Source: an uncultured Candidatus Saccharibacteria bacterium (GTDB lineage: Bacteria; Patescibacteriota; Saccharimonadia; CAILAD01; JADZBC01). From it: a stretch of DNA of 64,000 bases. The stretch covers positions 616 to 64,615 of the forward strand of contig CAYTBW010000002.1 in assembly GCA_964436255.1 (NCBI GenBank). Reading direction: 5' to 3'. Made by a program: the position numbers and the translations under genes. The notes beneath the pieces were generated by a model. The model did no database searches and was not told where the DNA came from. It saw only the letters and a list, made by a program, of their open reading frames with translations. This document shows, in pieces, positions 6,156 through 64,000 of the stretch (its first letter is position 1; the number at the start of each line of letters is the position of its first letter).

Positions 6156-6536
6156 ATGAATCGTTCACCGGCCATTAGGTTTTTAGCGGCAGCGCTACTT
6201 ATAGTATTTATTGTGGTTGCAACGTTTATGTATGGAAACGCTCAACGTGCTAAGCAGGAGCAGTCCAAGGAACAGGCAAAAGTAGAGGAAGTACAGAAGC
6301 AAAGTGAGCAGAAGCGAGAGGATCAGAAAGACCAGGGCCAGCAGGCCACTCAGACACTTCCGGCTGAGAGCCTAGAGCCAACTTCTTTGCCATCCGCAAG
6401 TACTTCGACAGTCGTTCCAGAGGTAACTCAGATCCCTACTACTGGTGGATCGGGCTCACTAAGCTTCGTACTGGCCGTTCTGGTACTATCGGCTCTTGGG
6501 TGCCTAGCGCGCCGCAGGCGGCTGGTTGCTGCATAG
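6156..6536 (+). CDS. Small surface protein with an N-terminal TM/signal, a Gln/Glu/Lys-rich region and a C-terminal sortase-like sorting signal (IPTTG + hydrophobic + RRRR)
   Basis: Start chosen at ATG 6156 with RBS AAGGGGAG. C-terminus 'IPTTGGSGSLSFVLAVLVLSALGCLARRRRL' has the tripartite architecture of a cell-wall sorting signal with a non-canonical motif. Confidence 0.35.
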   Translation: MNRSPAIRFLAAALLIVFIVVATFMYGNAQRAKQEQSKEQAKVEEVQKQSEQKREDQKDQGQQATQTLPAESLEPTSLPSASTSTVVPEVTQIPTTGGSGSLSFVLAVLVLSALGCLARRRRLVAA

Positions 6537-6555
6537 GCTGCAAGTGCTGCTTGTC

Positions 6556-6584
6556 TTTACACTCTCCCGTATTTAAGGTATAAT
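6556..6584 (+). promoter_or_regulatory. sigma70-like promoter (TTTACA-N17-TATAAT) upstream of rpsA
   Basis: TTTACA at 6556-6561, TATAAT at 6579-6584. Confidence 0.5.
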
Positions 6585-6667
6585 TCTTAGGAAATTTGGC
6601 CGTGAATCGGTCAAGGCCAGGCTCTGCGCGTTAGCGTAAATCCAAATGTCTGGTAAAGGAGAATATA

Positions 6668-7759
6668 GTGTCAACAAACAACCAAATCATGGCTGATCTT
6701 TTAGCCACTCATGAAATTAAAAACTTAACCCAAGGCGAACTTGTAGAAGGAACAGTCATTACTGCTGAAAAGCACGAAGTGTGGCTTGACCTCGGCATGT
6801 ACGGTACTGGCGTGGTTATGGGCCGCGAGCTCGAACAAGGCGCAGGGTCTATCAAAGAGGGTGATGTGCTAAGCGTTTCAGTTCTAGAGCCAGAGGCGCC
6901 AGAGGGGTATGCTATTCTGAGCCTCAAGAAAGTTGCTAAAGAAAAGGGCTGGGAATTGCTCGAAGAACGCTTCAAGGAAGGCGAAGTCTTTGGAATCATT
7001 CCATTCGACGCCAACAAGGGTGGCCTTCTGATCGAAATCGAAGGTATTCGAGGCTTCCTGCCCGTTTCTCAACTATCTGCAGAGAACTACCCACGCGTAA
7101 CCGGTGCAGATAAAGATGAAATCCTACACCGACTAAACAGCATCGTAAGTCGTACCCTGATGGTCCGCATCCTTGATCTAGACCGTAAGCAGAACAAGCT
7201 GATCGTGTCTGAAAAGGCAGCTCAACGCGAATTCACTGAAAGCAAGATTGCTAACTTCAAGGCTGGCGACAAGGTTAAGGGCGTCGTGACTGGCGTAGTG
7301 GACTTTGGTATCTTCGTGAATGTTGAGGGTATCGAAGGGCTTGTTCATATCTCCGAGATCGCTTGGGACCGTGTGGATAATCCTTCTAAGTACGTAAAGG
7401 TTGGCCAAGAAGTCGAAGCCCTAATAATCTCAATTGACCAGGAAAAGCTATCGCTTTCTATGAAGCAGCTTACGCCAGACCCATGGGTTAAAGAGATTGC
7501 TCAGTACAAAGTCGGCGATAAGGTAGACGGTAAGATTACCCGCATAACGCCATTTGGCGCGTTCGTGCAGGTTACTCCGGTAATCGAAGCCCTCGTGCAT
7601 ATCTCTGAGCTCGCAGATGAACACGTAGCAGATCCTGCTAGCCACGTTGAGCTAGGCGAGACGAAGCAGTTCACTATCATCGGCATTGACGAGGCTCAGC
7701 ACAAGTTGTCTTTAAGCCTCAAGGCCAAGGCCGCTAAAGCTAGCACCAAAGAGGACTAA
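6668..7759 (+). CDS. rpsA: 30S ribosomal protein S1 (short 4-domain form)
   Basis: Four S1 domains. GTG start with an AAAGGAGAA RBS. Confidence 0.8.
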   Translation: MSTNNQIMADLLATHEIKNLTQGELVEGTVITAEKHEVWLDLGMYGTGVVMGRELEQGAGSIKEGDVLSVSVLEPEAPEGYAILSLKKVAKEKGWELLEERFKEGEVFGIIPFDANKGGLLIEIEGIRGFLPVSQLSAENYPRVTGADKDEILHRLNSIVSRTLMVRILDLDRKQNKLIVSEKAAQREFTESKIANFKAGDKVKGVVTGVVDFGIFVNVEGIEGLVHISEIAWDRVDNPSKYVKVGQEVEALIISIDQEKLSLSMKQLTPDPWVKEIAQYKVGDKVDGKITRITPFGAFVQVTPVIEALVHISELADEHVADPASHVELGETKQFTIIGIDEAQHKLSLSLKAKAAKASTKED

Positions 7760-7762
7760 GCC

Positions 7763-7981
7763 GTGGCCGAGACTCGTCATACTCCGTTAAGGACATGTCG
7801 AGTCTGCCGGGCGAAGAAGCCCAAGGCCGAGCTGGAGCGGTGGGTGATCGCACCTGACGGGCTTACCCTCGATAGCACGAAGACTTTGCCAGGCCGAGGG
7901 CACTACAGTTGTCGCAGCGGTTGTAGCACGCAAATCCACACTAAAGTGAGAATCACGCAGAAGAAAGACAAGAGGACATAG
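7763..7981 (+). CDS. ylxR: YlxR/RnpM-family (DUF448) RNA-binding protein
   Basis: 'PLRTCRVCRAKKPKAELERWV...GRGHYSC' matches the YlxR signature. Conserved position immediately upstream of infB. Confidence 0.6.
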   Translation: MAETRHTPLRTCRVCRAKKPKAELERWVIAPDGLTLDSTKTLPGRGHYSCRSGCSTQIHTKVRITQKKDKRT

Positions 7982-9754
7982 ATGGAGCAAGACGACAAGA
8001 AGCAGATTGAGATTCCAGAAGTAGTGGCGGTAAGCGATTTTGCGCAGCGGCTCGGCTTGGGCGTTGCCCAGGTGGTGGGTGAACTTATGAAGAATGGCGT
8101 AATGGCCACCGTGAATGAAAATATTGATTTCGATACTGCCTCGATCATCGCAGGAGAGCTTGGTTTTGACATTGTTCCAGAGCCAAAGGAGGCCGAGGCT
8201 CGTCCTAGCCAATCGCTTGAGCAAACTGAAGAAAAGTCAGACGAGGAGGTGCGCCCGCCGATCGTAGCTGTAATGGGGCACGTTGACCACGGAAAGACGT
8301 CCCTATTGGACGCTATCCGTGAGAGCGATGTGGCATCTTCTGAGGCCGGTGGCATCACTCAGCATATCGGTGCCTACCAGGTGACGAAAAACGATCGTAG
8401 AATTACCTTCCTTGATACCCCAGGGCACGAAGCCTTCTCGGCTATTCGCGCTCACGGTGCTCGTATGACCGACGTTGCAATTATTGTAGTGGCCGGGGAC
8501 GACGGTGTTAAGCCTCAGACCAAAGAAGCCATTAACCATGCCAAGGATGCCGGTGTGGCGATCGTGGTTGCAATTAACAAGATGGATAAAGCTGATGCCG
8601 ACGTCAACCGCGTTAAGCAGGAGCTGAGCGAGATTGGTATTTTGGCTGACGACTGGGGCGGAGACGTGCCATGCGTAGAAGTCTCTGCTAAAACGCACGA
8701 TGGCATCACGAAGCTCCTGGACGTTGTTTTGCTTGTAGCCGATATCGCCGACCAAAAGGCCATTTTTACTGGCGCGGCAAGCGGTGTGGTTATTGAATCT
8801 CATCTTGAAACAGGTCGCGGCCCTGTAGTAACACTTTTGATCCAGAAGGGTACGTTGCGCACGGGAGACAGTTTGGTCGTAGGTACTACATATGGGAAGG
8901 TACGTAGCTTAGAAGACTATCGTGGGCGTAAGCTCAAAGAAGCGACTCCGGCTATGCCAGTAGTTGTTTCCGGTATCCGCGAAGTACCGAACTTCGGCGA
9001 GTGGTTCGAAGTAGTTTCTTCCGAGAAGGTAGCCAAGGACTGGGTTGCAAAGCAGGCTCGTAAGCAAAGTATTAAGAGTCTTACCAACACAAAGACGGTT
9101 ACGTCGCAAGACCTTAATCGGGCTGTAGTCGATGGTCAGGTAAAAGAGCTGGCAGTGCTGGTAAAGGCTGACGTACAGGGGTCGCTCGAGTCGTTGATTG
9201 ATAGCTTGAACCAGATTGGTAACGAAGAAGTCCGCGTCAAAGTAGTTTCGTCTGGTGTGGGTGACATTTCAGAGAGCGACGTTAACGCAGCCGATGCTGG
9301 TAACGCGATTATCCTTGGCTTTAATGTTAGTATTAAGGCCGCAGTAAACCAGCTCGCCAAGCGTAGCAAGGTGGATTTCCACCTATACAAAGTGATCTAT
9401 GAGTTGCTCGATGATATTCGTGATTGGCTTTCGAGCTTACTCCCGCCAGAGATCATCGAGATTGAACTCGCTCGCCTTGAGGTACTAGGGATCTTCAAGA
9501 CAACTAAAACCCAGATTATTACCGGGGGACGGGTGACTAGTGGTCAGCTACAATCAGGCATGACTGCCCGTATTTTACGTAAAGGCGAAGAAGTCGGTGC
9601 CGGTAAGGTTTCAAACCTACAGAAGGAAAAGCAGATAGCCCGTGAGGCCAACGAGGGTGATGAGTGTGGAATATCGCTTGATACTACCGACGCGCTTGAG
9701 CTTGGTGACGAACTCGTGTTCTACCGAATAGAAGAAAAGGCTCGCAAACTCTAA
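7982..9754 (+). CDS. infB: Translation initiation factor IF-2
   Basis: G domain 'AVMGHVDHGKTSLLD', DTPGH, NKMD; C-terminal IF2 domains. 590-aa short form. Confidence 0.9.
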   Translation: MEQDDKKQIEIPEVVAVSDFAQRLGLGVAQVVGELMKNGVMATVNENIDFDTASIIAGELGFDIVPEPKEAEARPSQSLEQTEEKSDEEVRPPIVAVMGHVDHGKTSLLDAIRESDVASSEAGGITQHIGAYQVTKNDRRITFLDTPGHEAFSAIRAHGARMTDVAIIVVAGDDGVKPQTKEAINHAKDAGVAIVVAINKMDKADADVNRVKQELSEIGILADDWGGDVPCVEVSAKTHDGITKLLDVVLLVADIADQKAIFTGAASGVVIESHLETGRGPVVTLLIQKGTLRTGDSLVVGTTYGKVRSLEDYRGRKLKEATPAMPVVVSGIREVPNFGEWFEVVSSEKVAKDWVAKQARKQSIKSLTNTKTVTSQDLNRAVVDGQVKELAVLVKADVQGSLESLIDSLNQIGNEEVRVKVVSSGVGDISESDVNAADAGNAIILGFNVSIKAAVNQLAKRSKVDFHLYKVIYELLDDIRDWLSSLLPPEIIEIELARLEVLGIFKTTKTQIITGGRVTSGQLQSGMTARILRKGEEVGAGKVSNLQKEKQIAREANEGDECGISLDTTDALELGDELVFYRIEEKARKL

Positions 9755-16849: not shown

Positions 16850-18046
16850 CTATTTACTACGGACAATGTAGTAGCCGTCTTGAGCGTCAGGGTCGGCGCT
16901 GTCTTCTAGCTTGGCAGCTATGGTGAAGGTTGATCCATCGGACTTATATGCGTATTTGATCTTGGTTTCCGGAGTGCTGGATGGATCGTAGTTGATTATC
17001 GTGATGTAGGGAGGGGTAGTGTACTGCAACGGGTAAATGACCTTGATGTCATCGCCAGCTGGATATGTGCCCTGCTGCTGCTTGTAAACCTCTAATGCTG
17101 CCGAGATGGTATTTAGGTCGTCTTTACGCTTTTGATCGCGTGCGGTGGCCTCTGGTGACGCCTCAGGGGGTCCGGGGACTTGCGGCTGATTGGCGTTCGT
17201 CGCAGCTGGCACTACCTGGTTCCTGTTTTGGCGAGAGAGCATCCATACCCCAATTGCGGCCACAAGTGCTAAGCATAGAATGGTTCCAATCAGCAGGGTC
17301 GCTTGTTTGCCCTTGGGTTTCTTTGAGGCCGAGTCAGTTTTGGCCGCCTGCTCATCCCTGGCCATAGGTGGCTTGACTTGTGGTTCTGGGGCTTTCTCTG
17401 CTTGGTTCTGGTTAACTGCAGTACTACTCGCTGAATCTGCCGGGCTGGTCTGGTCAACACCTCGCTCCGCGATCTCTTCGGCTAGCTCATAGGCCATGGT
17501 GTGCTTTGAGGCCTCGACTTCTTCCTGCGTAAATGGCACAGGTGTCGGGGGTTTTTCGACGAGCTCTTGCTGGGGCAGCTCTGGGCGGTCAAGTTTCGAG
17601 AGCAGGGCTGCTTGGCTTAACTCCGAGTCGAGATTAGGTTGTTCGATTGGGCTTTTTAGCTCAGGGCCAGAGAATGAGTTTGGCAATTCTGGACCATCGA
17701 GCTTGCTTGGTAGTTCAGGGACAACCAGGCGCTTTAGGCGTGCTTTGAGCCGATGCCGGAAGCGCAAGGCGTCTTGCTTAGTTACTGTCTGTGTCATTGG
17801 GACGTTCTGAGCCGGGTCGGGCACTTGTGCTGGTGTGTGCTCAGTAGTGGGGGTGGGCGGGAACGGATCTTCCGAAAGGGTTGGCGTTGCATGAACTGCA
17901 GCGTGGGTATGCATGGGCTGTGAGGGGATAGGGTGCTCGTGTTTAACCAGGGTCCCGCACTCCATACAGACGTCACCAACGGCAGTATGAACCATTGGCT
18001 GCTTGCAGGTCGGGCAGGGTGGAGGGGTGTGTGGGTCTTCGATCAT
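16850..18046 (-). CDS. Membrane protein: cytoplasmic N-terminal zinc ribbon, Pro-rich region, single TM, extracytoplasmic type IV pilin/pseudopilin-like C-terminal domain
   Basis: 'CPTCKQ...CMECG' zinc ribbon. TM 'LLIGTILCLALVAAIGVWML'. Post-TM 'RDQKRKDDLNTISAALEVYKQ' resembles the pilin N-terminal helix continuation, and 'TFTIAAKLE' is pilin-like. Start set at internal ATG (MIEDPH). Confidence 0.4.
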   Translation of the reverse strand: MIEDPHTPPPCPTCKQPMVHTAVGDVCMECGTLVKHEHPIPSQPMHTHAAVHATPTLSEDPFPPTPTTEHTPAQVPDPAQNVPMTQTVTKQDALRFRHRLKARLKRLVVPELPSKLDGPELPNSFSGPELKSPIEQPNLDSELSQAALLSKLDRPELPQQELVEKPPTPVPFTQEEVEASKHTMAYELAEEIAERGVDQTSPADSASSTAVNQNQAEKAPEPQVKPPMARDEQAAKTDSASKKPKGKQATLLIGTILCLALVAAIGVWMLSRQNRNQVVPAATNANQPQVPGPPEASPEATARDQKRKDDLNTISAALEVYKQQQGTYPAGDDIKVIYPLQYTTPPYITIINYDPSSTPETKIKYAYKSDGSTFTIAAKLEDSADPDAQDGYYIVRSK

Positions 18047-18103
18047 GATAATTCTTACGTTTATTATACCGATTATTAGGTTATTTGCCCAGAAACATAA
18101 CAA

Positions 18104-18213
18104 TAAAGAAAAAAATTGTTCAAAAAACTGTTGTGTTTTAGACTGTTGTAGATTTATACTAAGTAGTAAGTAATTTAAGTTATAAACAAAGAAAAAGTTG
18201 ATAAAAAAACAAT
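18104..18213. promoter_or_regulatory. AT-rich divergent promoter region with direct repeats (ACTGTTGT x2, 15-nt spacing) and TATACT-like -10 elements
   Basis: 110-nt, ~75% AT intergenic region between divergent genes. Direct repeat at 18127-18134 and 18142-18149. Confidence 0.35.
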
Positions 18214-18486
18214 ATGCTAAAGCTCTTCATAACATCAAAAACAAGACGAAAAATCATCACGATTTACAGTAAATATCCTGACTACCGGGTGCACGTACGT
18301 GGCCTGGCAAAGATTTTGCGTGAAGACCCGGGCAACATCCAACGCGAGCTTGCTCGCATGGAGAAGATTGGCTATGTAAAGTCTGCCAAAGAAGGCAACG
18401 CCAAGGTTTACTGGGTAAATCAGCAGTTCCTCCTCTTTAAAGAGCTGCAAAGTATGGTTCTAAAAACATCAAGGAAGAAGTCATAA
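18214..18486 (+). CDS. Small winged-helix DNA-binding protein (MarR/ArsR/TrmB-like)
   Basis: 'GLAKILREDPGNIQRELARMEKIGYV' HTH plus wing pattern. 90 aa. Confidence 0.4.
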   Translation: MLKLFITSKTRRKIITIYSKYPDYRVHVRGLAKILREDPGNIQRELARMEKIGYVKSAKEGNAKVYWVNQQFLLFKELQSMVLKTSRKKS

Positions 18487-18715: not shown

Positions 18716-20434
18716 ATGTCGACCGAACCAAAACCAGTCAAAACAGAAAACGCCAAGTCGTATACGTGGCGTTTTTTGTCTGGATCAGATCGGGCGGTTA
18801 CGAGTGCAGCCAGGCTGCGTGAGCTCATTTTACGTCAGCGTGGCGTGGAGCCAGAGCAGCAAGAGGCCTTCGTGTCGCCTGACTATAATGGGCTTCACGA
18901 CGCTGGACTTTTGAGTGGTGTGGGGTTGGCTGTAGAGCGTATTAACCACGCATTGGCGAATGGGCAAAAGATTGTTGTGTATGGGGATTATGATATTGAC
19001 GGCATAACAGCTACTGCTCTGCTGGTAGACGTACTCTCTCAGCTTGGGGCTCAAGTAAGCCCCTACATTCCAGACCGGTTTGAAGAGGGGTACGGTTTGA
19101 ATTTGGCTGCACTTAAGGCGCTCAAGTCAGACGGTGCCGATCTCCTCATTAGTGTGGATTGCGGTATTACCGCAGCGCACGAGGTGGCAGAAGCCGCGAA
19201 GTTTGGACTCGACATTATCGTAACCGATCATCATACAGTGCCAGAAGAAACTCCCGAAGCTGCAATAGCCTGCATAAATCCCCGCCTACCGGGCGACGAG
19301 TATCCATTCAAGGATCTAGCCGGTGTGGCCGTAGCATTTAAATTGGCCGTTGCCTTGGTCGCGGTACACCCTGACAAAGTAAAACCTGGTCGCGAAAAGT
19401 GGTTACTCGACCTGGTAGCGCTCGGCACGGTATGCGATGTGGTGCCCCTCGCGGGGGAAAACCGCGCATTAGTGCAGTTCGGGCTGACGGTGTTGCGCAA
19501 GAGCCCGCGGCCGGGACTCAGGGCATTAGCCGAAGCGAGTGGAGTGGAGCTCGCTAGCGTTCAGGCCTCGGATTTGGGTTTCCGGTTCGGCCCGCGACTG
19601 AATGCCGCAGGGCGCCTAGAGCACGCAGCTAAGGCACTGGAACTCATTACCACGACAGATACCGACCGGGCCAAAGAGCTGGCGGAGGGACTGAACGAAC
19701 TCAACCGCGAGCGACAAGACGAAACAGCGCGTGTGTTCGCGGAGGCAATGCAGCAATCCGAAGGCTATCTAGACGATGCCATTTTGGTACTTTCTGGCCA
19801 GGATTGGTCACATGGCATAGTCGGACTGGTTGCCAGCAGAGTTAGTGAGGCTCGGCATAAACCGACGATTATTTTGCAACAACTCGGCAAGACTACCAAG
19901 GGCTCTGCGCGTAGTGTTGGTACTTTTAATATTATCGAGGCGATTACGAGCGCAAAGCAACACTTAGAGCGTTACGGCGGGCATGCTTTTGCTGCTGGCA
20001 TGACACTCAAGACGAGTAAAGTGGTCGATTTGCGCAAAGCGCTCAATGCATACGCTGCCCAACACGAGTCAGAACTTAGTACGCAAAAGGAGCTCGTCGT
20101 TACCTGTCAGCTCGACGGGGGGATTTTGAATACCCAGTTGCTGACGCAGCTCGAGGCCTTGGAGCCGTATGGCAACGCCAACCCTCAGCCAATATTTGCG
20201 TCCAAGCTTAAATTGGTGCGCATGCGTCCAGTCGGTGCAGATCAAAAGCATTTGCAGATGAATTTCGAGGCTTCAGTGGGGCAGCTCGGCGCCATTGCCT
20301 TCAGCGCCGCTGGGCGCTGGCCCTGGCTTGAATTAGGGCAGCTGGTCGAAGTGGCCTACAGGGCGTCCAAAAACGTCTGGCAGGGGGTTGAGAGCCTCCA
20401 GCTCGAAGTGGTCGACATTCGACCGCTCCAGTAA
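18716..20434 (+). CDS. recJ: Single-stranded-DNA-specific exonuclease RecJ
   Basis: DHH 'VVYGDYDIDGITATALL', DHHT motif, DHHA1 domain, C-terminal OB-like region. Confidence 0.85.
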   Translation: MSTEPKPVKTENAKSYTWRFLSGSDRAVTSAARLRELILRQRGVEPEQQEAFVSPDYNGLHDAGLLSGVGLAVERINHALANGQKIVVYGDYDIDGITATALLVDVLSQLGAQVSPYIPDRFEEGYGLNLAALKALKSDGADLLISVDCGITAAHEVAEAAKFGLDIIVTDHHTVPEETPEAAIACINPRLPGDEYPFKDLAGVAVAFKLAVALVAVHPDKVKPGREKWLLDLVALGTVCDVVPLAGENRALVQFGLTVLRKSPRPGLRALAEASGVELASVQASDLGFRFGPRLNAAGRLEHAAKALELITTTDTDRAKELAEGLNELNRERQDETARVFAEAMQQSEGYLDDAILVLSGQDWSHGIVGLVASRVSEARHKPTIILQQLGKTTKGSARSVGTFNIIEAITSAKQHLERYGGHAFAAGMTLKTSKVVDLRKALNAYAAQHESELSTQKELVVTCQLDGGILNTQLLTQLEALEPYGNANPQPIFASKLKLVRMRPVGADQKHLQMNFEASVGQLGAIAFSAAGRWPWLELGQLVEVAYRASKNVWQGVESLQLEVVDIRPLQ

Positions 20435-46579: not shown

Positions 46580-47428
46580 CTAGTACGTAGGGTGCTTAAG
46601 CGGGCCGAGCTCGTTAATAGGCAAGAGTCGGGCTGTGGCGACCCCTACGATATCAAACCTAGGTAGCTGCCCCCACTCCCGTGAATCAAAGCTGCCGTTT
46701 GGCGCACGGTTGTCACCGACTACAAAATATTTCCCTTCTTCTACTACTTCGTCAATTTCGCCCTGGGTGGTAAGTGACTGGTCGATGTAGGGCTCGTTGA
46801 GCTCTAGGCCGTCTGGGTTGGCATCGTTATATATCGTAAACTTCCCGTTCTTCAGGACAACACGTTCACCAGGTAGCCCAATCAGGCGCTTAATGAAGAA
46901 AGTACCAGGACTATTTGGGTAGCGGAATACCAGTACGTCTCCTCGTTTCAGGTCTAGGCTCGTGTCCATGCCTAGGCCGGCTTTGATTGTGGTAAGCGTA
47001 AAACCAACCTTGTCGATAATAAGGTAGTCGCCGTCTTGGAAGCCTGGGTTCATACTGCTGCCGGAAACATAGAAGGCCTGGAAGACGAAACTGTGCAAGA
47101 ATAAAACTATAAGTCCCGGCAGAACGATCCAGCTGAATATCGTTTTTAGGACTCCAAGTATTGCGCTCGGCGCTCGTTCTTCCTCGAACTCCTCTTCGCT
47201 CGCGTCGGCCTGGTCTGCTTCTTGCTCTGCAGCTGGCTTCAGGGGTGGAGCGAGCTTAGGGTGAGTTTGTGGCTTGTCTGCCGGCGCCGCTTGAGCTGTC
47301 GCAGGAGCATGAGGGCTAGCAGGCGGCACAGCGTGGTCGTGCCGGGGCTGAGGTGGCGTGGTTCCTGGGTGAAGGCTAGGGGCTACTGGCTCAGTGCTGT
47401 TGTGCGGGTCTTGTTGCATGCTCATCAT
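46580..47428 (-). CDS. lepB: Signal peptidase I with a long Pro/Ala-rich N-terminal cytoplasmic extension
   Basis: 'SGSSMNP' catalytic Ser box, 'KRLIGLPGE', 'GDNR' box. ~110-aa low-complexity N-terminus before the TM. Confidence 0.8.
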   Translation of the reverse strand: MMSMQQDPHNSTEPVAPSLHPGTTPPQPRHDHAVPPASPHAPATAQAAPADKPQTHPKLAPPLKPAAEQEADQADASEEEFEEERAPSAILGVLKTIFSWIVLPGLIVLFLHSFVFQAFYVSGSSMNPGFQDGDYLIIDKVGFTLTTIKAGLGMDTSLDLKRGDVLVFRYPNSPGTFFIKRLIGLPGERVVLKNGKFTIYNDANPDGLELNEPYIDQSLTTQGEIDEVVEEGKYFVVGDNRAPNGSFDSREWGQLPRFDIVGVATARLLPINELGPLKHPTY

Positions 47429-47503
47429 TATAGCTGGGCATAAGTGCTATTGGAAGAGCCATAAGCTTTACGAAGATAGTACCGAGCCATTATAATAACC
47501 TAA

Positions 47504-58667: not shown

Positions 58668-60046
58668 TTCTGCGCGACCAAATAGCTCGATCGGGCCGGA
58701 ACTTACGGAACGCAAAAGCGCGGACGCTCCTTACAGCTGCCGCAATTGCAGTGGGCACATTTGCCCTGACTCTTACCTTGGCAGCTAGCAATGGCGCTAC
58801 GGCGTTCGTGAATAAGATTATAGCTGAGAACTTCGATCCAGCAGAGCTGATTGTTGCAAAAGATAAGTCAATTTTTGGCGGCAATGGCAGCAACACGAAG
58901 CCGCGCGAGTACGACCCAAGCTTCGGTACCGGGGTGTCGAATTCTGGTGCTACCACACAAATTAAGCGCGTGACCGACGAAGACATCGCAGTAATTAAGA
59001 GCGTGGATGGTGTAGTTAACGTTCGCGAAGACATCACGGTAAACTTGCGCTACATTACCCGCCCTGATCAAAAGAAGTACGTGGCGTCACTAGCAGCCTT
59101 TAGTCCCGCGCAGAAGCCTACCTTGCTAGCTGGTAGCATCGGTGAAGGTGGAGTGGTCGGCAAGGATGCTATCCTGCTGCCCGAAGGCTACGTTAAGGCA
59201 CTCGGCTTCAAGGATGCGCAGGATGCCATCGGCAAGGACATAACAGCTTCAGTTACAAAATCACTTACTGCCGGCGCAGCGGATATTGCCAGTTTAAGTG
59301 CGAGCGTAAATTCGCCAGCTGATTTGGCCAAACTGAGTGAGCAGGCAAGCGTGGAGCGAACGCTTAAGGTGGCAGCCGTCACCAAGAAGCCAACCACGGC
59401 TCAGCCTGGCACAGAGCTCTACCTGTATGCCGACGCCGATACGGCTCGTGAGCTGAATGACATTACTACCGAGGGCACCGCTAACTACCGCAAATACAAC
59501 TACGTATTCGCCAAAGTCGAGGGCGGTGAGAACGAGGCTACACTCAAAGCCGCTCAGGATGAGCTTAAAGAGAAGGGCTTCGCCGTACAGAGCGTTAAGG
59601 AAGCCCAAGAGTTCCTGACCAGCATCATCTCGATCCTGCAGGGGATTGTGGCGGCCTTTGCGGCAATTGCTATCATCGCCTCGGTCTTCGGCATCGTGAA
59701 CACCATGTACATTAGCGTACTACAGCGTACACGAGAGATTGGCCTTATGAAGGCGCTCGGCATGCGTAAGCGCGATATTGGTAGACTGTTTCGTTTTGAG
59801 GCGGCATGGATCGGGTTCATCGGAGGGGTTGTCGGCTCTCTATTAGCGGTTGGCTTGGGCGTAGCCTTAAACCCTTGGATTACCAAGTCGCTTGACCTTG
59901 GTACGGGCAATTCACTGCTCATATTTAAGCCATTCGAGGTCGTGCAGCTCGTGGTCGCACTGATGATCGTGGCAATCTTGACAGGGTGGCTGCCATCGCG
60001 CAAGGCTGCCAAGCTCGACCCAATTGAAGCGCTAAGGACAGAATAG
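58664..60046 (+). CDS. ABC transporter permease, FtsX/MacB-like (4 TM plus a large extracytoplasmic domain)
   Basis: MacB_PCD-like N-terminal region and FtsX C-terminal TM bundle; start overlaps the ATPase gene. Confidence 0.75.
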   Translation: MILRDQIARSGRNLRNAKARTLLTAAAIAVGTFALTLTLAASNGATAFVNKIIAENFDPAELIVAKDKSIFGGNGSNTKPREYDPSFGTGVSNSGATTQIKRVTDEDIAVIKSVDGVVNVREDITVNLRYITRPDQKKYVASLAAFSPAQKPTLLAGSIGEGGVVGKDAILLPEGYVKALGFKDAQDAIGKDITASVTKSLTAGAADIASLSASVNSPADLAKLSEQASVERTLKVAAVTKKPTTAQPGTELYLYADADTARELNDITTEGTANYRKYNYVFAKVEGGENEATLKAAQDELKEKGFAVQSVKEAQEFLTSIISILQGIVAAFAAIAIIASVFGIVNTMYISVLQRTREIGLMKALGMRKRDIGRLFRFEAAWIGFIGGVVGSLLAVGLGVALNPWITKSLDLGTGNSLLIFKPFEVVQLVVALMIVAILTGWLPSRKAAKLDPIEALRTE

Positions 60047-60054
60047 GAGACGAT

Positions 60055-60312
60055 ATGTTAATTGATGTACGTACGCCAGAGGAATATGCAGAAGCCCATA
60101 TAGACGGGGCTGTTAACGTGGAGCTAGCTGAGGGTATGGCCTCTAAACTGCCGGCTGATGCAGCCGGCCAAACACTCGAAATTTATTGCAGGAGTGGCGG
60201 TAGGGCTACGGCAGCAGAGCAGATTCTGCGCCGGGCTGGTTATGAGGTAAAGAACTTAGGCGGCGTAGATGACGTTCTGGCACTAGGGCGTACGTTGTCG
60301 GTAGGAGAATAG
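60055..60312 (+). CDS. Single-domain rhodanese-like sulfurtransferase
   Basis: 'MLIDVRTPEEYAEAHIDGAVN...YCRSGGRA' active-site Cys loop. Confidence 0.75.
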   Translation: MLIDVRTPEEYAEAHIDGAVNVELAEGMASKLPADAAGQTLEIYCRSGGRATAAEQILRRAGYEVKNLGGVDDVLALGRTLSVGE

Positions 60313-60334
60313 AGCAAAGCCACTAAAACGAAAA

Positions 60335-60365
60335 GGACCCCCGAACGAATCGGGGGTCCTTTTCG
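60335..60365. terminator. Bidirectional rho-independent terminator
   Basis: AAAAGGACCCCCGA-ACGAA-TCGGGGGTCCTTTTCG: 10-bp GC stem, A-run upstream and T-run downstream, between convergent genes. The 3' arm is directly repeated (CGTTCGGGGGTCG) at 60365-60377. Confidence 0.8.
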
Positions 60366-60393
60366 TTCGGGGGTCGGGTGGTGCGGGCTGGGT

Positions 60394-60813
60394 TTAGCTG
60401 ATCGGCTTGAGCTCCAGGCCGAGCTTGGCCAGCTTCTCCTTGACCAGGTCGAGGCTCTTCTGGCCGAAGTTCGTGATCGCGAGGAGGTCATCCTCGGTCT
60501 TCTCGACCAGCTGGCCGACGGTCTCGATCTGGGCACGACGCAGGCTGTTGCGAGCCCGTTCGACGCGGTTGTCGTCGGGGGGTGGCGAACCACCCTCGTC
60601 GTAGCCGAGGAACTCCTCGGTGGTCATCTCCACCGGCGGCTTCTGTCCGATGTACTCGACGCTCGAGACCTGGGTCTGGATGCGCGCGCTGAGCTTCAGG
60701 CCGGGGTAGTCCTGCTCCATGCGCAGGATGGCGGCCTTGGCAGCCAGGATCTGGTCCGCGGGGCCCGTCATGACGAGCTCGGCGGAGATGCTGTTGGGTT
60801 CGGGGTCGGTCAT
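60394..60813 (-). CDS. Stand-alone RNA polymerase alpha-subunit C-terminal-domain (alphaCTD)-like protein, high-GC, probably horizontally acquired
   Basis: C-terminal '[51 protein letters not shown]' matches the RpoA alphaCTD helix-hairpin-helix, especially actinobacterial '[24 protein letters not shown]'. The N-terminal half resembles the RpoA linker region. ~65-70% GC with GC3-rich codons against a ~50% GC genome. Own RBS AGAGG plus ATG at 60813. Confidence 0.6.
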
Positions 60814-60961
60814 CTGATACCTCTGTTCTCTAGTGACCGTGAGACGCCCTTCTGGGCGATTAAGGCATAATAGCATAATATAGCTTATTTGTCAATATAC
60901 TTTGACATTTTGTTACTCTACTGACTTTCCGTTATACTTGAACCAATATAAAGGAGCCACT

Positions 60962-62281
60962 ATGGCACGGGTTACACCACGAATTCTCAGCGGTTTTGTA
61001 GAACTACTACCCGAGGATCAAATCCAGTTCAATAAGATGTTCGATACTATTCGTGGCGTATACGAGAGCTACGGCTATGCGCCGATTGAAACTCCTGCAA
61101 TTGAGCTGGGCGAGGTACTGCTTGCCAAAGCGGGCGGAGAAACTGAAAAGCAGATATACAAAATCGCTCGCGATAAAGACGACAAAGACATGGCGTTGCA
61201 CTTTGACCTAACCGTGCCATTGGCGCGTTACGTGGCCCAACACGAGGGTGAATTGGTGTTTCCGTTCCGCAGGTACCAGATGCAAAAGGTATGGCGCGGC
61301 GAGCGCAGCCAAGCGGGCCGATATAGAGAATTCTATCAGTGTGACATTGATGTAATCGGTAGTAATAGTGTTCTGTATGATGCCGAGATGCCTGCGGTTA
61401 TTTCCAGTGTGTTTCGTAAACTCAGCATCGGCAGTTTTACTATCCGTGTAAACAACCGCAAGATCCTGCAAGGCTACCTGGAGAGCATTGGTGCACATCA
61501 CATTTCTGCAGAAGTTCTGCGTGTAATTGATAAGCTAGAAAAGATCGGCGAAGCCGCAGTGGTCTCTGAGCTCGTTAAACTCGGCGTTGAAGAGCAAGTA
61601 ACCCAAAAGCTACTGGCATTCTTAAGTACGGCAGGAACTGTGGACGAGGTCCTTGAGCAGCTTGGACAAGTAGATACGCAGAATACCCGTTACCTAGCTG
61701 GCTTAGAAGAGCTACGTGGCGTGGTTGACGGTATGCGCCGCCTTGGTTTGCCAGACGAAGATTATGTGATTGATCTTAAAATTGCCCGTGGCTTGGATTA
61801 CTACACCGGTACTGTTTACGAAACGAACCTCGATGACTTCCCGGGCGTAGGTAGCGTATGCTCCGGCGGGCGTTATGATGATTTGGCAAGTTATTACACC
61901 AAAAGCAAGCTCCCTGGAGTGGGTGTTTCCATAGGTCTAACACGGCTCTTTATGCAGCTCAAAGAGATCGGGCTTGTGAGCGCTGGCGCTAAGACCATGA
62001 GTAGGGCTGTGATCTTGCCTCTTACCACTGATGCGACTGCACGAGCGCTAGAAGTTGCTACCCAGTTGCGGGCTGCCGGCATCGCAGTTGAAACATACAT
62101 GGAGCAGTCGCAACCAAGCAAGATGATGCGCTATGTGGATCGACTCGGCGCTCCGTACGCGATCGTGATTGGCGAAGACGAGCTGGCAAGTGGGCAAGTA
62201 GTGCTCAAGAACATGGAAACTGGCGAGCAGCCCGTCATGGGCGTCCAAGAAGTCATCAAGCGCCTTAGTGCTGACAACTAG
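60962..62281 (+). CDS. hisS: Histidyl-tRNA synthetase
   Basis: Class II motifs, HisA/HisB and anticodon-binding domain. Start ATG 60962 with AAAGGAG RBS. Confidence 0.9.
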   Translation: MARVTPRILSGFVELLPEDQIQFNKMFDTIRGVYESYGYAPIETPAIELGEVLLAKAGGETEKQIYKIARDKDDKDMALHFDLTVPLARYVAQHEGELVFPFRRYQMQKVWRGERSQAGRYREFYQCDIDVIGSNSVLYDAEMPAVISSVFRKLSIGSFTIRVNNRKILQGYLESIGAHHISAEVLRVIDKLEKIGEAAVVSELVKLGVEEQVTQKLLAFLSTAGTVDEVLEQLGQVDTQNTRYLAGLEELRGVVDGMRRLGLPDEDYVIDLKIARGLDYYTGTVYETNLDDFPGVGSVCSGGRYDDLASYYTKSKLPGVGVSIGLTRLFMQLKEIGLVSAGAKTMSRAVILPLTTDATARALEVATQLRAAGIAVETYMEQSQPSKMMRYVDRLGAPYAIVIGEDELASGQVVLKNMETGEQPVMGVQEVIKRLSADN

Positions 62282-62313
62282 CCTCGAATCTGCTATAATA
62301 TTGAGCGAAAGAT

Positions 62314-62352
62314 ACGCGCCACATTGTGTGTCAATGTAGGCGCATTTATTTT
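62314..62352 (+). terminator. Hairpin plus U-rich tract downstream of hisS (terminator, or a typA leader element)
   Basis: GCGCCACATTG-TGTGT-CAATGTAGGCGC followed by ATTTATTTTG. Confidence 0.45.
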
Positions 62353-62388
62353 GCTCAAATCTAACATAATCACTCAGAAAGGCACCAT

Positions 62389-64000
62389 ATGGAAGCTGCT
62401 CAAAAAACAGAGAATATTCGTAACATTGCAATTATTGCCCACGTAGACCATGGTAAAACTACCCTAGTAGACGGATTGCTCAAACAGTCTAAGACATTCC
62501 GTGAAAACCAAGCCGAAATGGCTCAGGACCTCATTATGGACAGTGGCGACCAGGAAAAAGAACGAGGCATTACCATTACCGCCAAAGTAACTGCCGTACA
62601 GCACGGTGACTACCGTGTAAACATTATTGATACTCCGGGGCACGCTGATTTTTCTGGCGAAGTTGAGCGTACGCTCAACATGGCCGATGGCTGTTTGCTG
62701 ATTGTGGACGCGCAGGAAGGCCCAATGCCTCAGACCAAGTTTGTACTTACTAAAGCACTTGCTGGCGGTCTTAAGCCGATTGTAGTTATTAACAAGATTG
62801 ATAAGCCAGGCAGCCGAATCGCCGAAGTAGAAGAAGAGCTGGCCGATCTGTTCCTAGAGCTCGCCGTGCATGAAGATCAGCTTCATTACCCTGTTTACTA
62901 CGCAATTGGACGCGAAGGAAAAGCCTGGAAGGACGCGCCAAGTGACCCGAGTGCAGCAGGGGACTTAGAATGTATTTTTGACGCAATAATTAGTGACGTA
63001 CCTGCTCCAGACGTAGAGCTCGATGCGCCATTCCAGATGCTCGTAACAGCCTTAGCCCACGATACCTATAAGGGCAAGTACGCTGTTGGTCGCATTAACC
63101 GCGGATCCGTGAAGCCAGGAGACACCGTTGCGCTTTGCCAAAAAGACGGCAAAATCTCCAAGGCGCGCGTTGAAGCAGTATTCATGAGCCACGGAGTCAG
63201 TAAGTTTGAAGTTCCGGGTGGAATCGCTGGCGATATCGTACAACTTACTGGAATCAGCGCTGTGCAGATTGGCGAAACAATCGCTGACGCCGAAAAGCCA
63301 GAGGCACTGCCGGTGCTCGAAGTAGAAGCACCAACACTCAAGATCTACATTGGTCCAAACACAAGTCCACTTAAGGGCCTAGAGGGTGAGTTTACAACCA
63401 GTCGACAGATAGATGAGCGTTTGTATAAAGAGCTTGAAACAAACATAGGTTTGCGTGTTGAAGACGGTGGTCTTGGGTTCTTGGTCTCAGGCCGTGGAGA
63501 ACTCCACTTAAGTGTACTTATCGAGACATTGCGCCGAGAAGGCTTCGAGCTCGAGGTAGGTAGACCACAGGTTGTGACCAAGGAAGAAGACGGCAAGACT
63601 ATGGAGCCGCTCGAAGAGCTAATTATTGAAGTCCCTGCCGAGCACGTAGGCGCGGTACAGATGGAACTTGGCGCTCGTCGCGCAACGCTGAAGGAGCAGT
63701 TTGCGAGCCCTAAGGGCGTCACGAAGCTCGTTTATGAATTACCAACTCGCGTTCTGCTTGGTTTGCGCAATATTCTACTTACCAACACAAAAGGCACAGT
63801 GATTATGAACAGCCTCATGATCGGCTACCAGCCACTAGGCCCTGCTATGCAGCAGCTCCGTAGTGGCGTACTCATCGCTTTTGAGGCCGGCTCGACCACT
63901 CCATATGCTCTTCAGACTGTTGAGCAGCGCGGTACATGTTTTGTTGGTCCGGGCGAAAAGGTATACGCCGGGCAGATTATTGGTCTGAACGCGCGTTCCG
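62389..64000 (+). CDS. typA: Translational GTPase TypA/BipA (5' portion; continues beyond the window end)
   Basis: '[19 protein letters not shown]', '[10 protein letters not shown]', 'NKID'. No stop before position 64000. Confidence 0.85.

Follow-up and report, generated by a model that had tools for sequence, protein, structure and literature searches.

The closest described counterparts of the locus analyzed here are the minimal mobile elements of Neisseria (Saunders and Snyder 2002 and Snyder 2007, as recounted in PMC3787668). As far as that account describes them, these elements are alternative genes that occupy the same site between conserved flanking genes, differ among the closest relatives, are of atypical composition and lack mobility genes of their own, in a naturally competent group of bacteria. 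The cassette arrays of integrons provide a second comparison: these consist of tandem units with a single open reading frame (ORF) each, all in one orientation and variable in number and order, with each unit ending in a conserved imperfect palindrome. Here we describe a locus that resembles both, in a 64,000-nucleotide stretch of DNA (the window; positions 616 to 64,615 of contig CAYTBW010000002.1, assembly GCA_964436255.1) from an uncultured Candidatus Saccharibacteria bacterium. Between hisS and a rhodanese-domain gene, the window contains a short gene of aberrant composition, cassette A, that encodes a stand-alone protein (protein A) with the C-terminal domain (CTD) of the RNA polymerase alpha subunit (alphaCTD).

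We lean, without great confidence in the model as a whole, towards an explanation with three parts: the gap between hisS and the rhodanese gene would be a small hypervariable islet in one Candidatus Saccharibacteria clade, in which co-occurring lineages gain, lose and exchange cassettes; the alphaCTD of cassette A would have been captured from an Acidimicrobiia-type rpoA and fused to an orphan N-terminal domain (N-domain); and the product would function as a free alphaCTD. Saccharibacteria have tiny genomes, depend on actinobacterial hosts and carry little accessory genome with an obvious role. If the model is right, one clade keeps compact, rapidly reshuffled single-gene cassettes of foreign composition, one of which bears a domain lifted from actinobacterial RNA polymerase.

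The islet shares with the Neisseria elements, as these are presented in the source cited above, the alternative genes between constant flanks, the atypical composition, the lack of mobility genes and the setting in a competent group (Saccharibacteria in culture live as epibionts on Actinobacteria and are naturally competent; PMC10633639, PMC10187176), and its mosaic flanks likewise fit homologous recombination. It differs from the elements described there in being modular, that is, built of tandem single-gene units that each have their own promoter and the same 3' element of about 55 nucleotides (nt) and are reshuffled singly, as well as in its occurrence in Saccharibacteria, where exchange by transformation is a proposal drawn from sequence comparison.

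Cassettes between hisS and the rhodanese gene

Cassette A (60394..60813, minus strand, stop codon included; ATG at 60811-60813, TAA at 60394-60396) was delineated by ORF calling and translation and encodes an alphaCTD-family protein of 139 amino acids (aa). An earlier note on this DNA, made by inspection of the sequence, had marked positions 60335-60830, that is, the ORF and part of its 3' element, as a block of high G+C content (GC) with strong third-position bias, and computation, both windowed and for individual ORFs, bears this out. The ORF has a GC of 0.652, with 0.914 at third codon positions (GC3) and 0.521 at the first and second positions (GC12). Among the 47 other ORFs of the window that encode 150 aa or more, GC3 averages 0.538 (standard deviation 0.048, range 0.418-0.631), which places cassette A at z = 7.9, and GC12 averages 0.488 (standard deviation 0.023), so that the elevation of GC12 is only mild. 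The highest GC of any 300-nt segment of the window (0.68) is found at 60510, within the ORF, and GC3 is similarly high across the N-domain, the linker and the CTD. The intergenic DNA upstream (60814-60961) has a GC of 0.385; the compositional shift therefore does start at the start codon, as the note had stated.

The region from 59000 to 63000 is 100% identical over 4001 nt to the Logan assembly of SRR12712864 and 99.97% identical over 3362 nt to the JGI assembly 3300043411, with both alignments unbroken across both junctions of the cassette; such agreement of two independent assemblies excludes a chimera. Cassette A is thus confirmed as a real, intact, stand-alone ORF of high GC, apparently expressed, given its predicted promoter, ribosome-binding site (RBS) and terminator. 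It is divergent from hisS (60962..62281, plus strand; PF13393 and PF03129, GC3 0.53) and convergent with the rhodanese-domain gene (60055..60312, plus strand; PF00581, GC3 0.45), and each of these flanking genes is the neighbor at all related loci.

A search of 5.8 billion proteins yielded only six other full-length homologs of protein A (P0002-P0007, 61-76% identity), beyond which the CTD part alone was matched, to RpoA fragments. Every full-length homolog with a readable contig maps to one and the same locus, with the order hisS, gene, (small ORF), rhodanese-FtsX-ABC, and further genomes were reached through homologs of hisS. In every case, the cassettes are bordered by hisS-bipA-relA at one end and by rhodanese-FtsX-ABC at the opposite end. 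A locus has one to four of them, all antisense to the flanking genes; by their ORFs, they fall into at least seven types (A, B, C, D, E, A3 and orf159). Each cassette is a unit composed of its own promoter, an AATC tetranucleotide with a hairpin in the 5' untranslated region (5'-UTR), an RBS, an ORF and the 3' element. The window and loci L004, L087 and L088 contain A alone; L095 / L096 have A and C'; L100 has B' and E; L098 has B, C and D, without A; L001 has A, B, C and D; and L104 + L007, from one metagenome-assembled genome, have orf159 and A3 and, further on, A. Intact orthologs of A with conserved signals occupy the same site in at least nine lineages, which contradicts the notion, raised along with the initial observation, of an insert private to one genome.

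The L001 array (L001:6001-8215; GCA_964413715.1, CAYPSN010000001.1) illustrates the modular structure most fully: its four tandem cassettes encode A (143 aa), B (139 aa), C (a 125-aa membrane protein) and D (147 aa, an alphaCTD paralog with 38% identity to A). A separate promoter precedes each of the four, and a copy of the 3' element follows it. B, C, E and orf159 lack a Pfam match above threshold; for B and C, the PADLOC and PHROGs families likewise gave no match with a meaningful E-value. In the protein database, B is represented by only five clusters, and those that could be read sit at the hisS-rhodanese locus.

The content of the islet changes faster than the genes around it. Loci L095 and L100, with 96.6% aa identity of hisS and a synonymous divergence (dS) of 0.126, have no cassette in common (A and C' versus B' and E), and nine other loci present more combinations, in line with the turnover among close relatives that the cited account gives for the Neisseria elements. 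Conversely, cassettes can be nearly identical between diverged genomes: between the window and L095, dS is 0.08 for cassette A compared to 1.26 for hisS and 1.42 for the rhodanese gene, and between L001 and L098, it is 0.03 for B and 0.08 for C compared to 1.75 for hisS and 1.47 for bipA. These estimates are biased low where GC3 exceeds 0.9, which counts against taking them at face value, but a composition-corrected test on fourfold sites points the same way: the fourfold-site identity of A is well over the compositional expectation, and in six lineages, the synonymous sites of the flanks are saturated while A holds a GC3 of 0.82-0.97.

The similarity between L001 and L098 extends over a block of about 1.15 kb that is 86-100%, mostly 94-100%, identical, non-coding DNA between cassettes included, with edges near the RBS of B and the start of D; the two lineages co-occur in sample ERZ27309396. 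The flanks themselves are mosaic, with a dS of 0.20 for the rhodanese gene and 1.17 for hisS between the window and L100. Given that cassette dS (0.03-0.08) is far below that of the flanks (1.3-1.8), and that near-identity reaches into non-coding DNA, the comparison shows, as far as sequences can, that diverged lineages which co-occur have recently exchanged cassettes and have mosaic flanks, the cassettes being younger than the genomes that carry them. The likeliest route would be natural transformation followed by homologous recombination within the conserved flanks and the repeated modules. An exchange site of this kind between housekeeping genes would be a useful recombination marker and possibly a neutral insertion site in the now-transformable Saccharibacteria.

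Ancestry and possible function of protein A

Protein A comprises three parts. The N-terminal orphan domain (aa 1-57; 60643..60813, minus strand) has a conserved 16-letter core and a predicted helix at residues 19-35. The variable linker (aa 58-84; 60562..60642, minus strand) holds, according to hhalign and the multiple alignment, the start of the alphaCTD, 'EMTTEEFLG', and an insertion of 8-14 aa that is absent from RpoA. The alphaCTD core (aa 85-139; 60397..60561, minus strand) retains the DNA-contact residues of the '265 determinant', R86, N89, G117, K119 and S120, which align with E. coli R265, N268, G296, K298 and S299. Within the cassette A family, R86, G117 and S120 are invariant, N89 is replaced by S in P0003, and K119 by R in P0007. 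The CTD was recognized in the earlier note, and a Pfam match confirms it (PF03118, RNA_pol_A_CTD, residues 87-130, E = 1.2e-15; score 57.4 bits, cutoff 23.8); the fold is the compact, helical double helix-hairpin-helix of this domain. The linker is the fastest-changing part, with aa identity of 23-59% and dN/dS (the ratio of nonsynonymous to synonymous divergence) up to 3.5 over about 25 codons, and the dN/dS of the CTD, 0.3-0.9, indicates purifying selection.

The resemblance to RpoA ends with the CTD. In a profile-profile alignment by hhalign to the C-terminal 160 residues of 13 Acidimicrobiia RpoA proteins, only residues 58-137 of protein A were covered, at 70% identity, with an insertion of about 14 aa after 'EEFLG' that splits the first segment of the domain. 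The earlier note had taken the N-terminal half for the RpoA linker and the whole for the 3' third of an rpoA, neither of which can be upheld: only about 80 aa are RpoA-like, and residues 1-57 match the RpoA region upstream of the CTD at an hhalign E-value of just 0.16-0.46, which is not significant and also speaks against these residues being the end of the RpoA N-terminal domain plus linker. To the eye, the N-domain does resemble RpoA ('TDG..P.D.L..A'), and the alignments that Foldseek makes with full-length RpoA run to about 125 columns. An exhaustive HMMER search with residues 1-63 against 1.84 billion representative proteins turned up no credible relative outside the cassette A family; the two outside matches, a TPR protein and a Sushi-repeat protein with six repeated weak matches, were judged spurious.

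There is no Pfam match to the RpoA N-terminal assembly domains (PF01000, PF01193) in the 139 aa, the RpoA equivalog model TIGR02027, which has a cutoff of 227.8 bits, gives a score of 56.1 bits and is covered at positions 246-296 only, and the NCBIfam RpoA models are matched over no more than their last ~50 positions, well under cutoff. It follows that protein A is not an RpoA subunit; as judged by these comparisons, it is an orphan N-domain joined to a captured alphaCTD rather than the 3' third of rpoA. The JGI label of P0001 (139 aa), 'DNA-directed RNA polymerase alpha subunit', is an over-annotation, which the present analysis corrects.

The ancestry of the CTD points to Acidimicrobiia. In a scan of species-representative genomes, the best matches after the protein's own family are all Acidimicrobiia RpoA (including Microthrixaceae, Iamiaceae and Ilumatobacteraceae; 65-73% aa identity over residues 77-136, among the best 80 of 587 confirmed matches), in agreement with the actinobacterial affinity proposed at the outset. 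A run of 18 aa is identical between the CTD of cassette A and Acidimicrobiia RpoA, and nucleotide identity to Acidimicrobiia rpoA is 78-81% over 130-166 nt. Ranked by score, the solved structures place mycobacterial RpoA first, followed by Streptomyces, Bacillus and E. coli. A phage origin was considered and rejected, there being no match in 50,697 phage records and nothing for A in PHROGs or PADLOC; IMG/VR gave a single match to A, with 40% identity.

Several further stand-alone alphaCTD genes of Saccharibacteria bear on this history. The P0055/L030 type (GC3 0.75-0.78), the P0009 type (GC3 0.59), and the cassette products D and A3 share with A the actinobacterial type of alphaCTD and the promoter style, and differ from A in having different N-domains or none, different loci and a GC3 of 0.58-0.78. 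The insertion in the CTD of A, together with 'LDLV', is common to all stand-alone alphaCTDs compared except P0009, which lacks the insertion, is 67-75% identical to Acidimicrobiia CTDs and has 'ERARNCLRRAQI' in common with A. In D and A3, the DNA-contact residues are lost, so that these proteins may work differently from A. This pattern suggests, at the level of sequence, a single old capture of an Acidimicrobiia-type CTD with subsequent diversification.

The composition of the cassettes provides a separate line of evidence. The polarized synonymous third-position changes in A comprise 25 from G/C to A/T and a single one in the opposite direction, compared with a near balance in hisS (103 versus 75). 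Such a flux implies that GC3 is decaying, that is, amelioration is in progress, and the reconstruction puts ancestral GC3 of the cassette at about 0.96, a value that would mark a high-GC source. Other cassettes share the bias to various extents: GC3 is 0.82-0.97 in A, 0.82-0.89 in B, 0.70-0.84 in C, 0.75 in E and 0.67-0.70 in D, so that five types are clearly raised (0.67-0.97), and orf159 (0.61) and A3 (0.58) fall towards the upper end of the genome range. A high-GC source thus appears to be implied for whole cassettes and not just for the CTD. The resulting compositional puzzle, an unseen high-GC reservoir, bears on gene flow from host to epibiont.

One could instead suppose that the CTD of the bacterium's own rpoA was duplicated in situ and that GC-biased gene conversion or synonymous selection at a recombination hotspot raised GC3 in all ORFs of the islet. 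The raised GC3 of all these ORFs, most of them orphans, the intense recombination at the locus and the ordinary GC3 of the related P0009 would all fit. We nevertheless find this scenario doubtful: the 25:1 flux means that GC3 in A is falling rather than being held or raised, the flanking genes also recombine and yet keep an ordinary GC3 (0.42-0.62), and no Saccharibacteria rpoA is present among the best 80 of the 587 genome matches, where Acidimicrobiia dominate. Selection or biased conversion was likewise rejected as the main cause of the high GC3, on the grounds of the same flux and of the near-identity of non-coding DNA.

As for function, lacking the alpha N-terminal domain, protein A would be unable to assemble into RNA polymerase. 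It differs from the alphaCTD of RpoA in this respect, in the insertion and the fusion to an unrelated orphan domain, and in the location of its fast-evolving gene within an accessory islet. The most likely role, judging from the retained contact residues, is that of a free alphaCTD that modulates transcription by binding A/T-rich UP-like DNA or the factors for which alphaCTD is the normal docking site, with the N-domain supplying self-association or contact with a partner. Saccharibacteria would then offer a free alphaCTD protein, the effect of which on transcription is open to measurement.

A different role, as a helix-hairpin-helix DNA-binding factor of the machinery for DNA uptake or recombination, comes to mind because two stand-alone alphaCTD genes on contigs of Saccharibacteria type have competence-related neighbors: a P0009-type gene lies directly downstream of dprA (PF02481; L093:1182-2474), and an alphaCTD gene in L030 shares its 3.5-kb contig with a TfoX_N gene (L030:96-2973), both with a promoter of the TTGAC..TGCTAATAT type. 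The alphaCTD is itself a double helix-hairpin-helix fold, and paralogs give weak matches to HHH_5. We rate this role as unlikely for protein A given that these are two adjacencies only, on short contigs, that the neighbors in the window are hisS and the rhodanese gene, and that the retained residues form the UP-element contact surface.

We give about the same low credence to the possibility that the islet is a host-interaction or arms-race locus and that cassette A is a mimic of the host alphaCTD. An epibiont living on Acidimicrobiia-type Actinobacteria would, under this scenario, keep, diversify and trade a copy of the host domain, which would titrate factors of the host or of host phages, or UP elements, with cassettes repeatedly drawn from a host-linked high-GC reservoir. 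The Acidimicrobiia-like CTD, the fast linker, presence or absence among near relatives and the unexplained high-GC source are all compatible with mimicry; the protein of cassette A has no secretion signal.

Returning to capture of the CTD and its use as a free alphaCTD, several points count against that account. No donor gene combining the N-domain with the CTD turned up in a high-GC setting, nor did any high-GC organism with these genes; the CTD alone has an identifiable relative. Since the N-domain, B, C and E are orphans that occur at no other locus, a high-GC source is deduced from composition only, and the structural model of the N-domain is weak when this domain is folded alone. Neither the window nor any of the Saccharibacteria loci fetched contains a native rpoA, so descent from the bacterium's own rpoA is excluded only indirectly. 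Finally, if a single old capture gave rise to all these alphaCTDs, A must have spent time in a high-GC genome to account for its very high GC3, which leaves this history tentative.

Cassette signals and the conserved 3' element

The cassette A promoter (60867..60895, minus strand), TTGACA and TATTAT separated by a 17-nt spacer with an upstream TG, matches the consensus at 11 of 12 positions, and the module TTGAC(A/T)-N17-TGCTAATAT is found upstream of the A orthologs and of the other cassettes. Immediately after the invariant AATC, the ortholog alignment reveals a 5'-UTR hairpin, CGCCC-AGAA-GGGCG (60845..60858, minus strand), the stem of which, as read from the alignment, varies in an apparently compensatory manner (CGCCC/GGGCG, CGTCC/GGACG, CATCC/GGATG). 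The Shine-Dalgarno sequence AGAGG (60820..60824, minus strand) lies 6 nt before the ATG, exactly the arrangement noted initially for a stand-alone ORF, and a purine-rich RBS occupies the same place in all orthologs.

The conserved 3' element (60327..60382, no strand assigned; on the minus strand, ACCACCCGACCCCCGAACGAAAAGGACCCCCGATTCGTTCGGGGGTCCTTTTCGTT) consists of a half-copy, GACCCCCGAACGAA, followed by a bidirectional terminator hairpin with a stem of 18-19 bp. The hairpin is a perfect palindrome (60327-60367) with a GC core of 10 bp and a 5-nt loop, folds at a dG of -41.3 kcal/mol (z -6.1) on the minus strand and -46 (z -5.2) on the plus strand, and is followed by the U-run UUUUCGUUUU. By these sequence criteria it is an intrinsic terminator, predicted to be able to work both ways. 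The arm is directly repeated, as TCGGGGGTC, at 60350-60358 and 60367-60375. Thus, the bidirectional terminator and the duplicated arm described in the earlier note are both present, the hairpin being longer than described there; their interpretation as a junction scar fails, because the half-copy is kept in 18 of 18 cassettes.

The consensus of the element, about 55 nt long, is CAACCCGACCCCCGAACGAAAAGG(A)CCCCCGATTCGTTCGGGGGTCCTTTTCGTT, and the element with its half-copy of the arm follows all 18 cassettes, representing seven ORF types at 11 loci. Two alternative helices can be drawn, each 94% paired, and covariation is too low to choose between them. The element occurs once in the window, has no match in the viral contig collection and has one match in JGI metagenome contigs, the plain terminator of an unrelated organism. 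Given this uniqueness in the window and near absence from public collections, a genome-wide uptake sequence or REP-like repeat was rejected.

A conserved terminal palindrome raises the question of an integron-like mechanism, in which the 3' element would be an attC-type site and cassettes would move by site-specific recombination. Indeed, one imperfect palindrome, accompanied by an extra half-site, closes all of the cassettes, and the arrays of one to four cassettes are all in one orientation. The locus departs from integrons in most other respects. No integrase or recombinase was detected within 8 kb on either side at any locus (the search for integrases, transposases and recombinases covered 5-8 kb on each side in L001, L004, L095, L098 and L100), which by itself makes an integron-type mechanism unlikely; each cassette has its own -35 and -10 elements, unlike the mostly promoterless cassettes of integrons; the 3' element has the canonical form of an intrinsic terminator and is absent from the rest of the window and nearly so from public collections; the mapped breakpoints lie elsewhere; and the mosaic flanks fit homologous recombination. 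An integron-like mechanism is therefore quite improbable. That the placed breakpoints do not coincide with the 3' element also tells against the recombination model that we prefer, so that a role of the element in exchange is unproven.

Still less probable is the straightforward scenario with which the study of this gene began, a recent direct insertion of the 3' third of an rpoA from an actinobacterial host, with the duplicated terminator arm as its scar. The high GC3, the Acidimicrobiia-like CTD and the onset of the GC shift at the ATG all agree with such an insertion, and the foreign high-GC origin, together with the 25:1 amelioration, upholds that much of the claim of recent horizontal acquisition. 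What does not hold is a one-off direct event: the RpoA-like part amounts to about 80 aa and contains a family-specific insertion, the N-domain is not derived from RpoA, A is found at the same site in at least nine lineages with A-to-A identity down to 54% aa, the putative scar follows 18 of 18 cassettes with unrelated ORFs, and the best nucleotide identity to the sampled Acidimicrobiia rpoA is just 78-81%. An assembly chimera or a contaminating actinobacterial fragment, suggested by the abrupt change in composition, can be set aside, given the two assemblies from different datasets that are 100% and 99.97% identical through both junctions and the same synteny at ten further loci from other samples.

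Other features of the window and related loci

No tRNA gene was found in the window by ARAGORN, ruling out a tRNA integration site. No Rfam family reached its gathering score in the window; a sub-threshold match to ctRNA_p42d (19 versus 50 bits) falls on the terminator hairpin.

The A copy of L001 (L001:6001-6432) has the most extreme GC3 observed, 0.97, and contains an internal 9-aa tandem duplication (IEFIGDKSR / IEFIGQRP) in the region from the N-domain to the linker. In some lineages, extra ORFs with ordinary GC3 and without cassette modules lie between the last cassette and the rhodanese gene, among them an ORF for a 152-aa acidic protein (L089:2286-2744) and one for a conserved 59-aa membrane peptide (L001:8219-8398, L004:6497-6676 and L098:3053-3232). 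At some loci (L095:2177-3560 and 6428-8264; L098:710-1444), gene calling splits FtsX-permease, bipA and ABC-ATPase genes into two pieces each, and these genes are intact in sister loci, so that the splits could be frameshifts caused by sequencing errors or real pseudogenization. Many hisS proteins that are 57-59% identical to the one in the window (P0146, P0182, P0188 and others) bear the NCBI label 'MAG: Lachnospiraceae bacterium' or 'Firmicutes bacterium', which could reflect mis-binned Saccharibacteria contigs or true similarity of hisS.

The window opens with an ORF of the size of fusA and one of the size of tuf (a resemblance in size, as opposed to a Pfam assignment). Two further stretches exceed a GC of 0.60 in 300-nt segments, one (19268-19804) inside the ORF 18716-20434 and the other (47105-47469) at the 5' end of the signal-peptidase gene 46580-47428; the genes concerned have an ordinary whole-gene GC3 (0.57). 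The most A/T-rich stretch of the window, 17906-18467, with a GC minimum of 0.31 near 18027, extends from the 5' end of the ORF 16850-18103 (minus strand) into the gap before the ORF 18716-20434 (plus strand).

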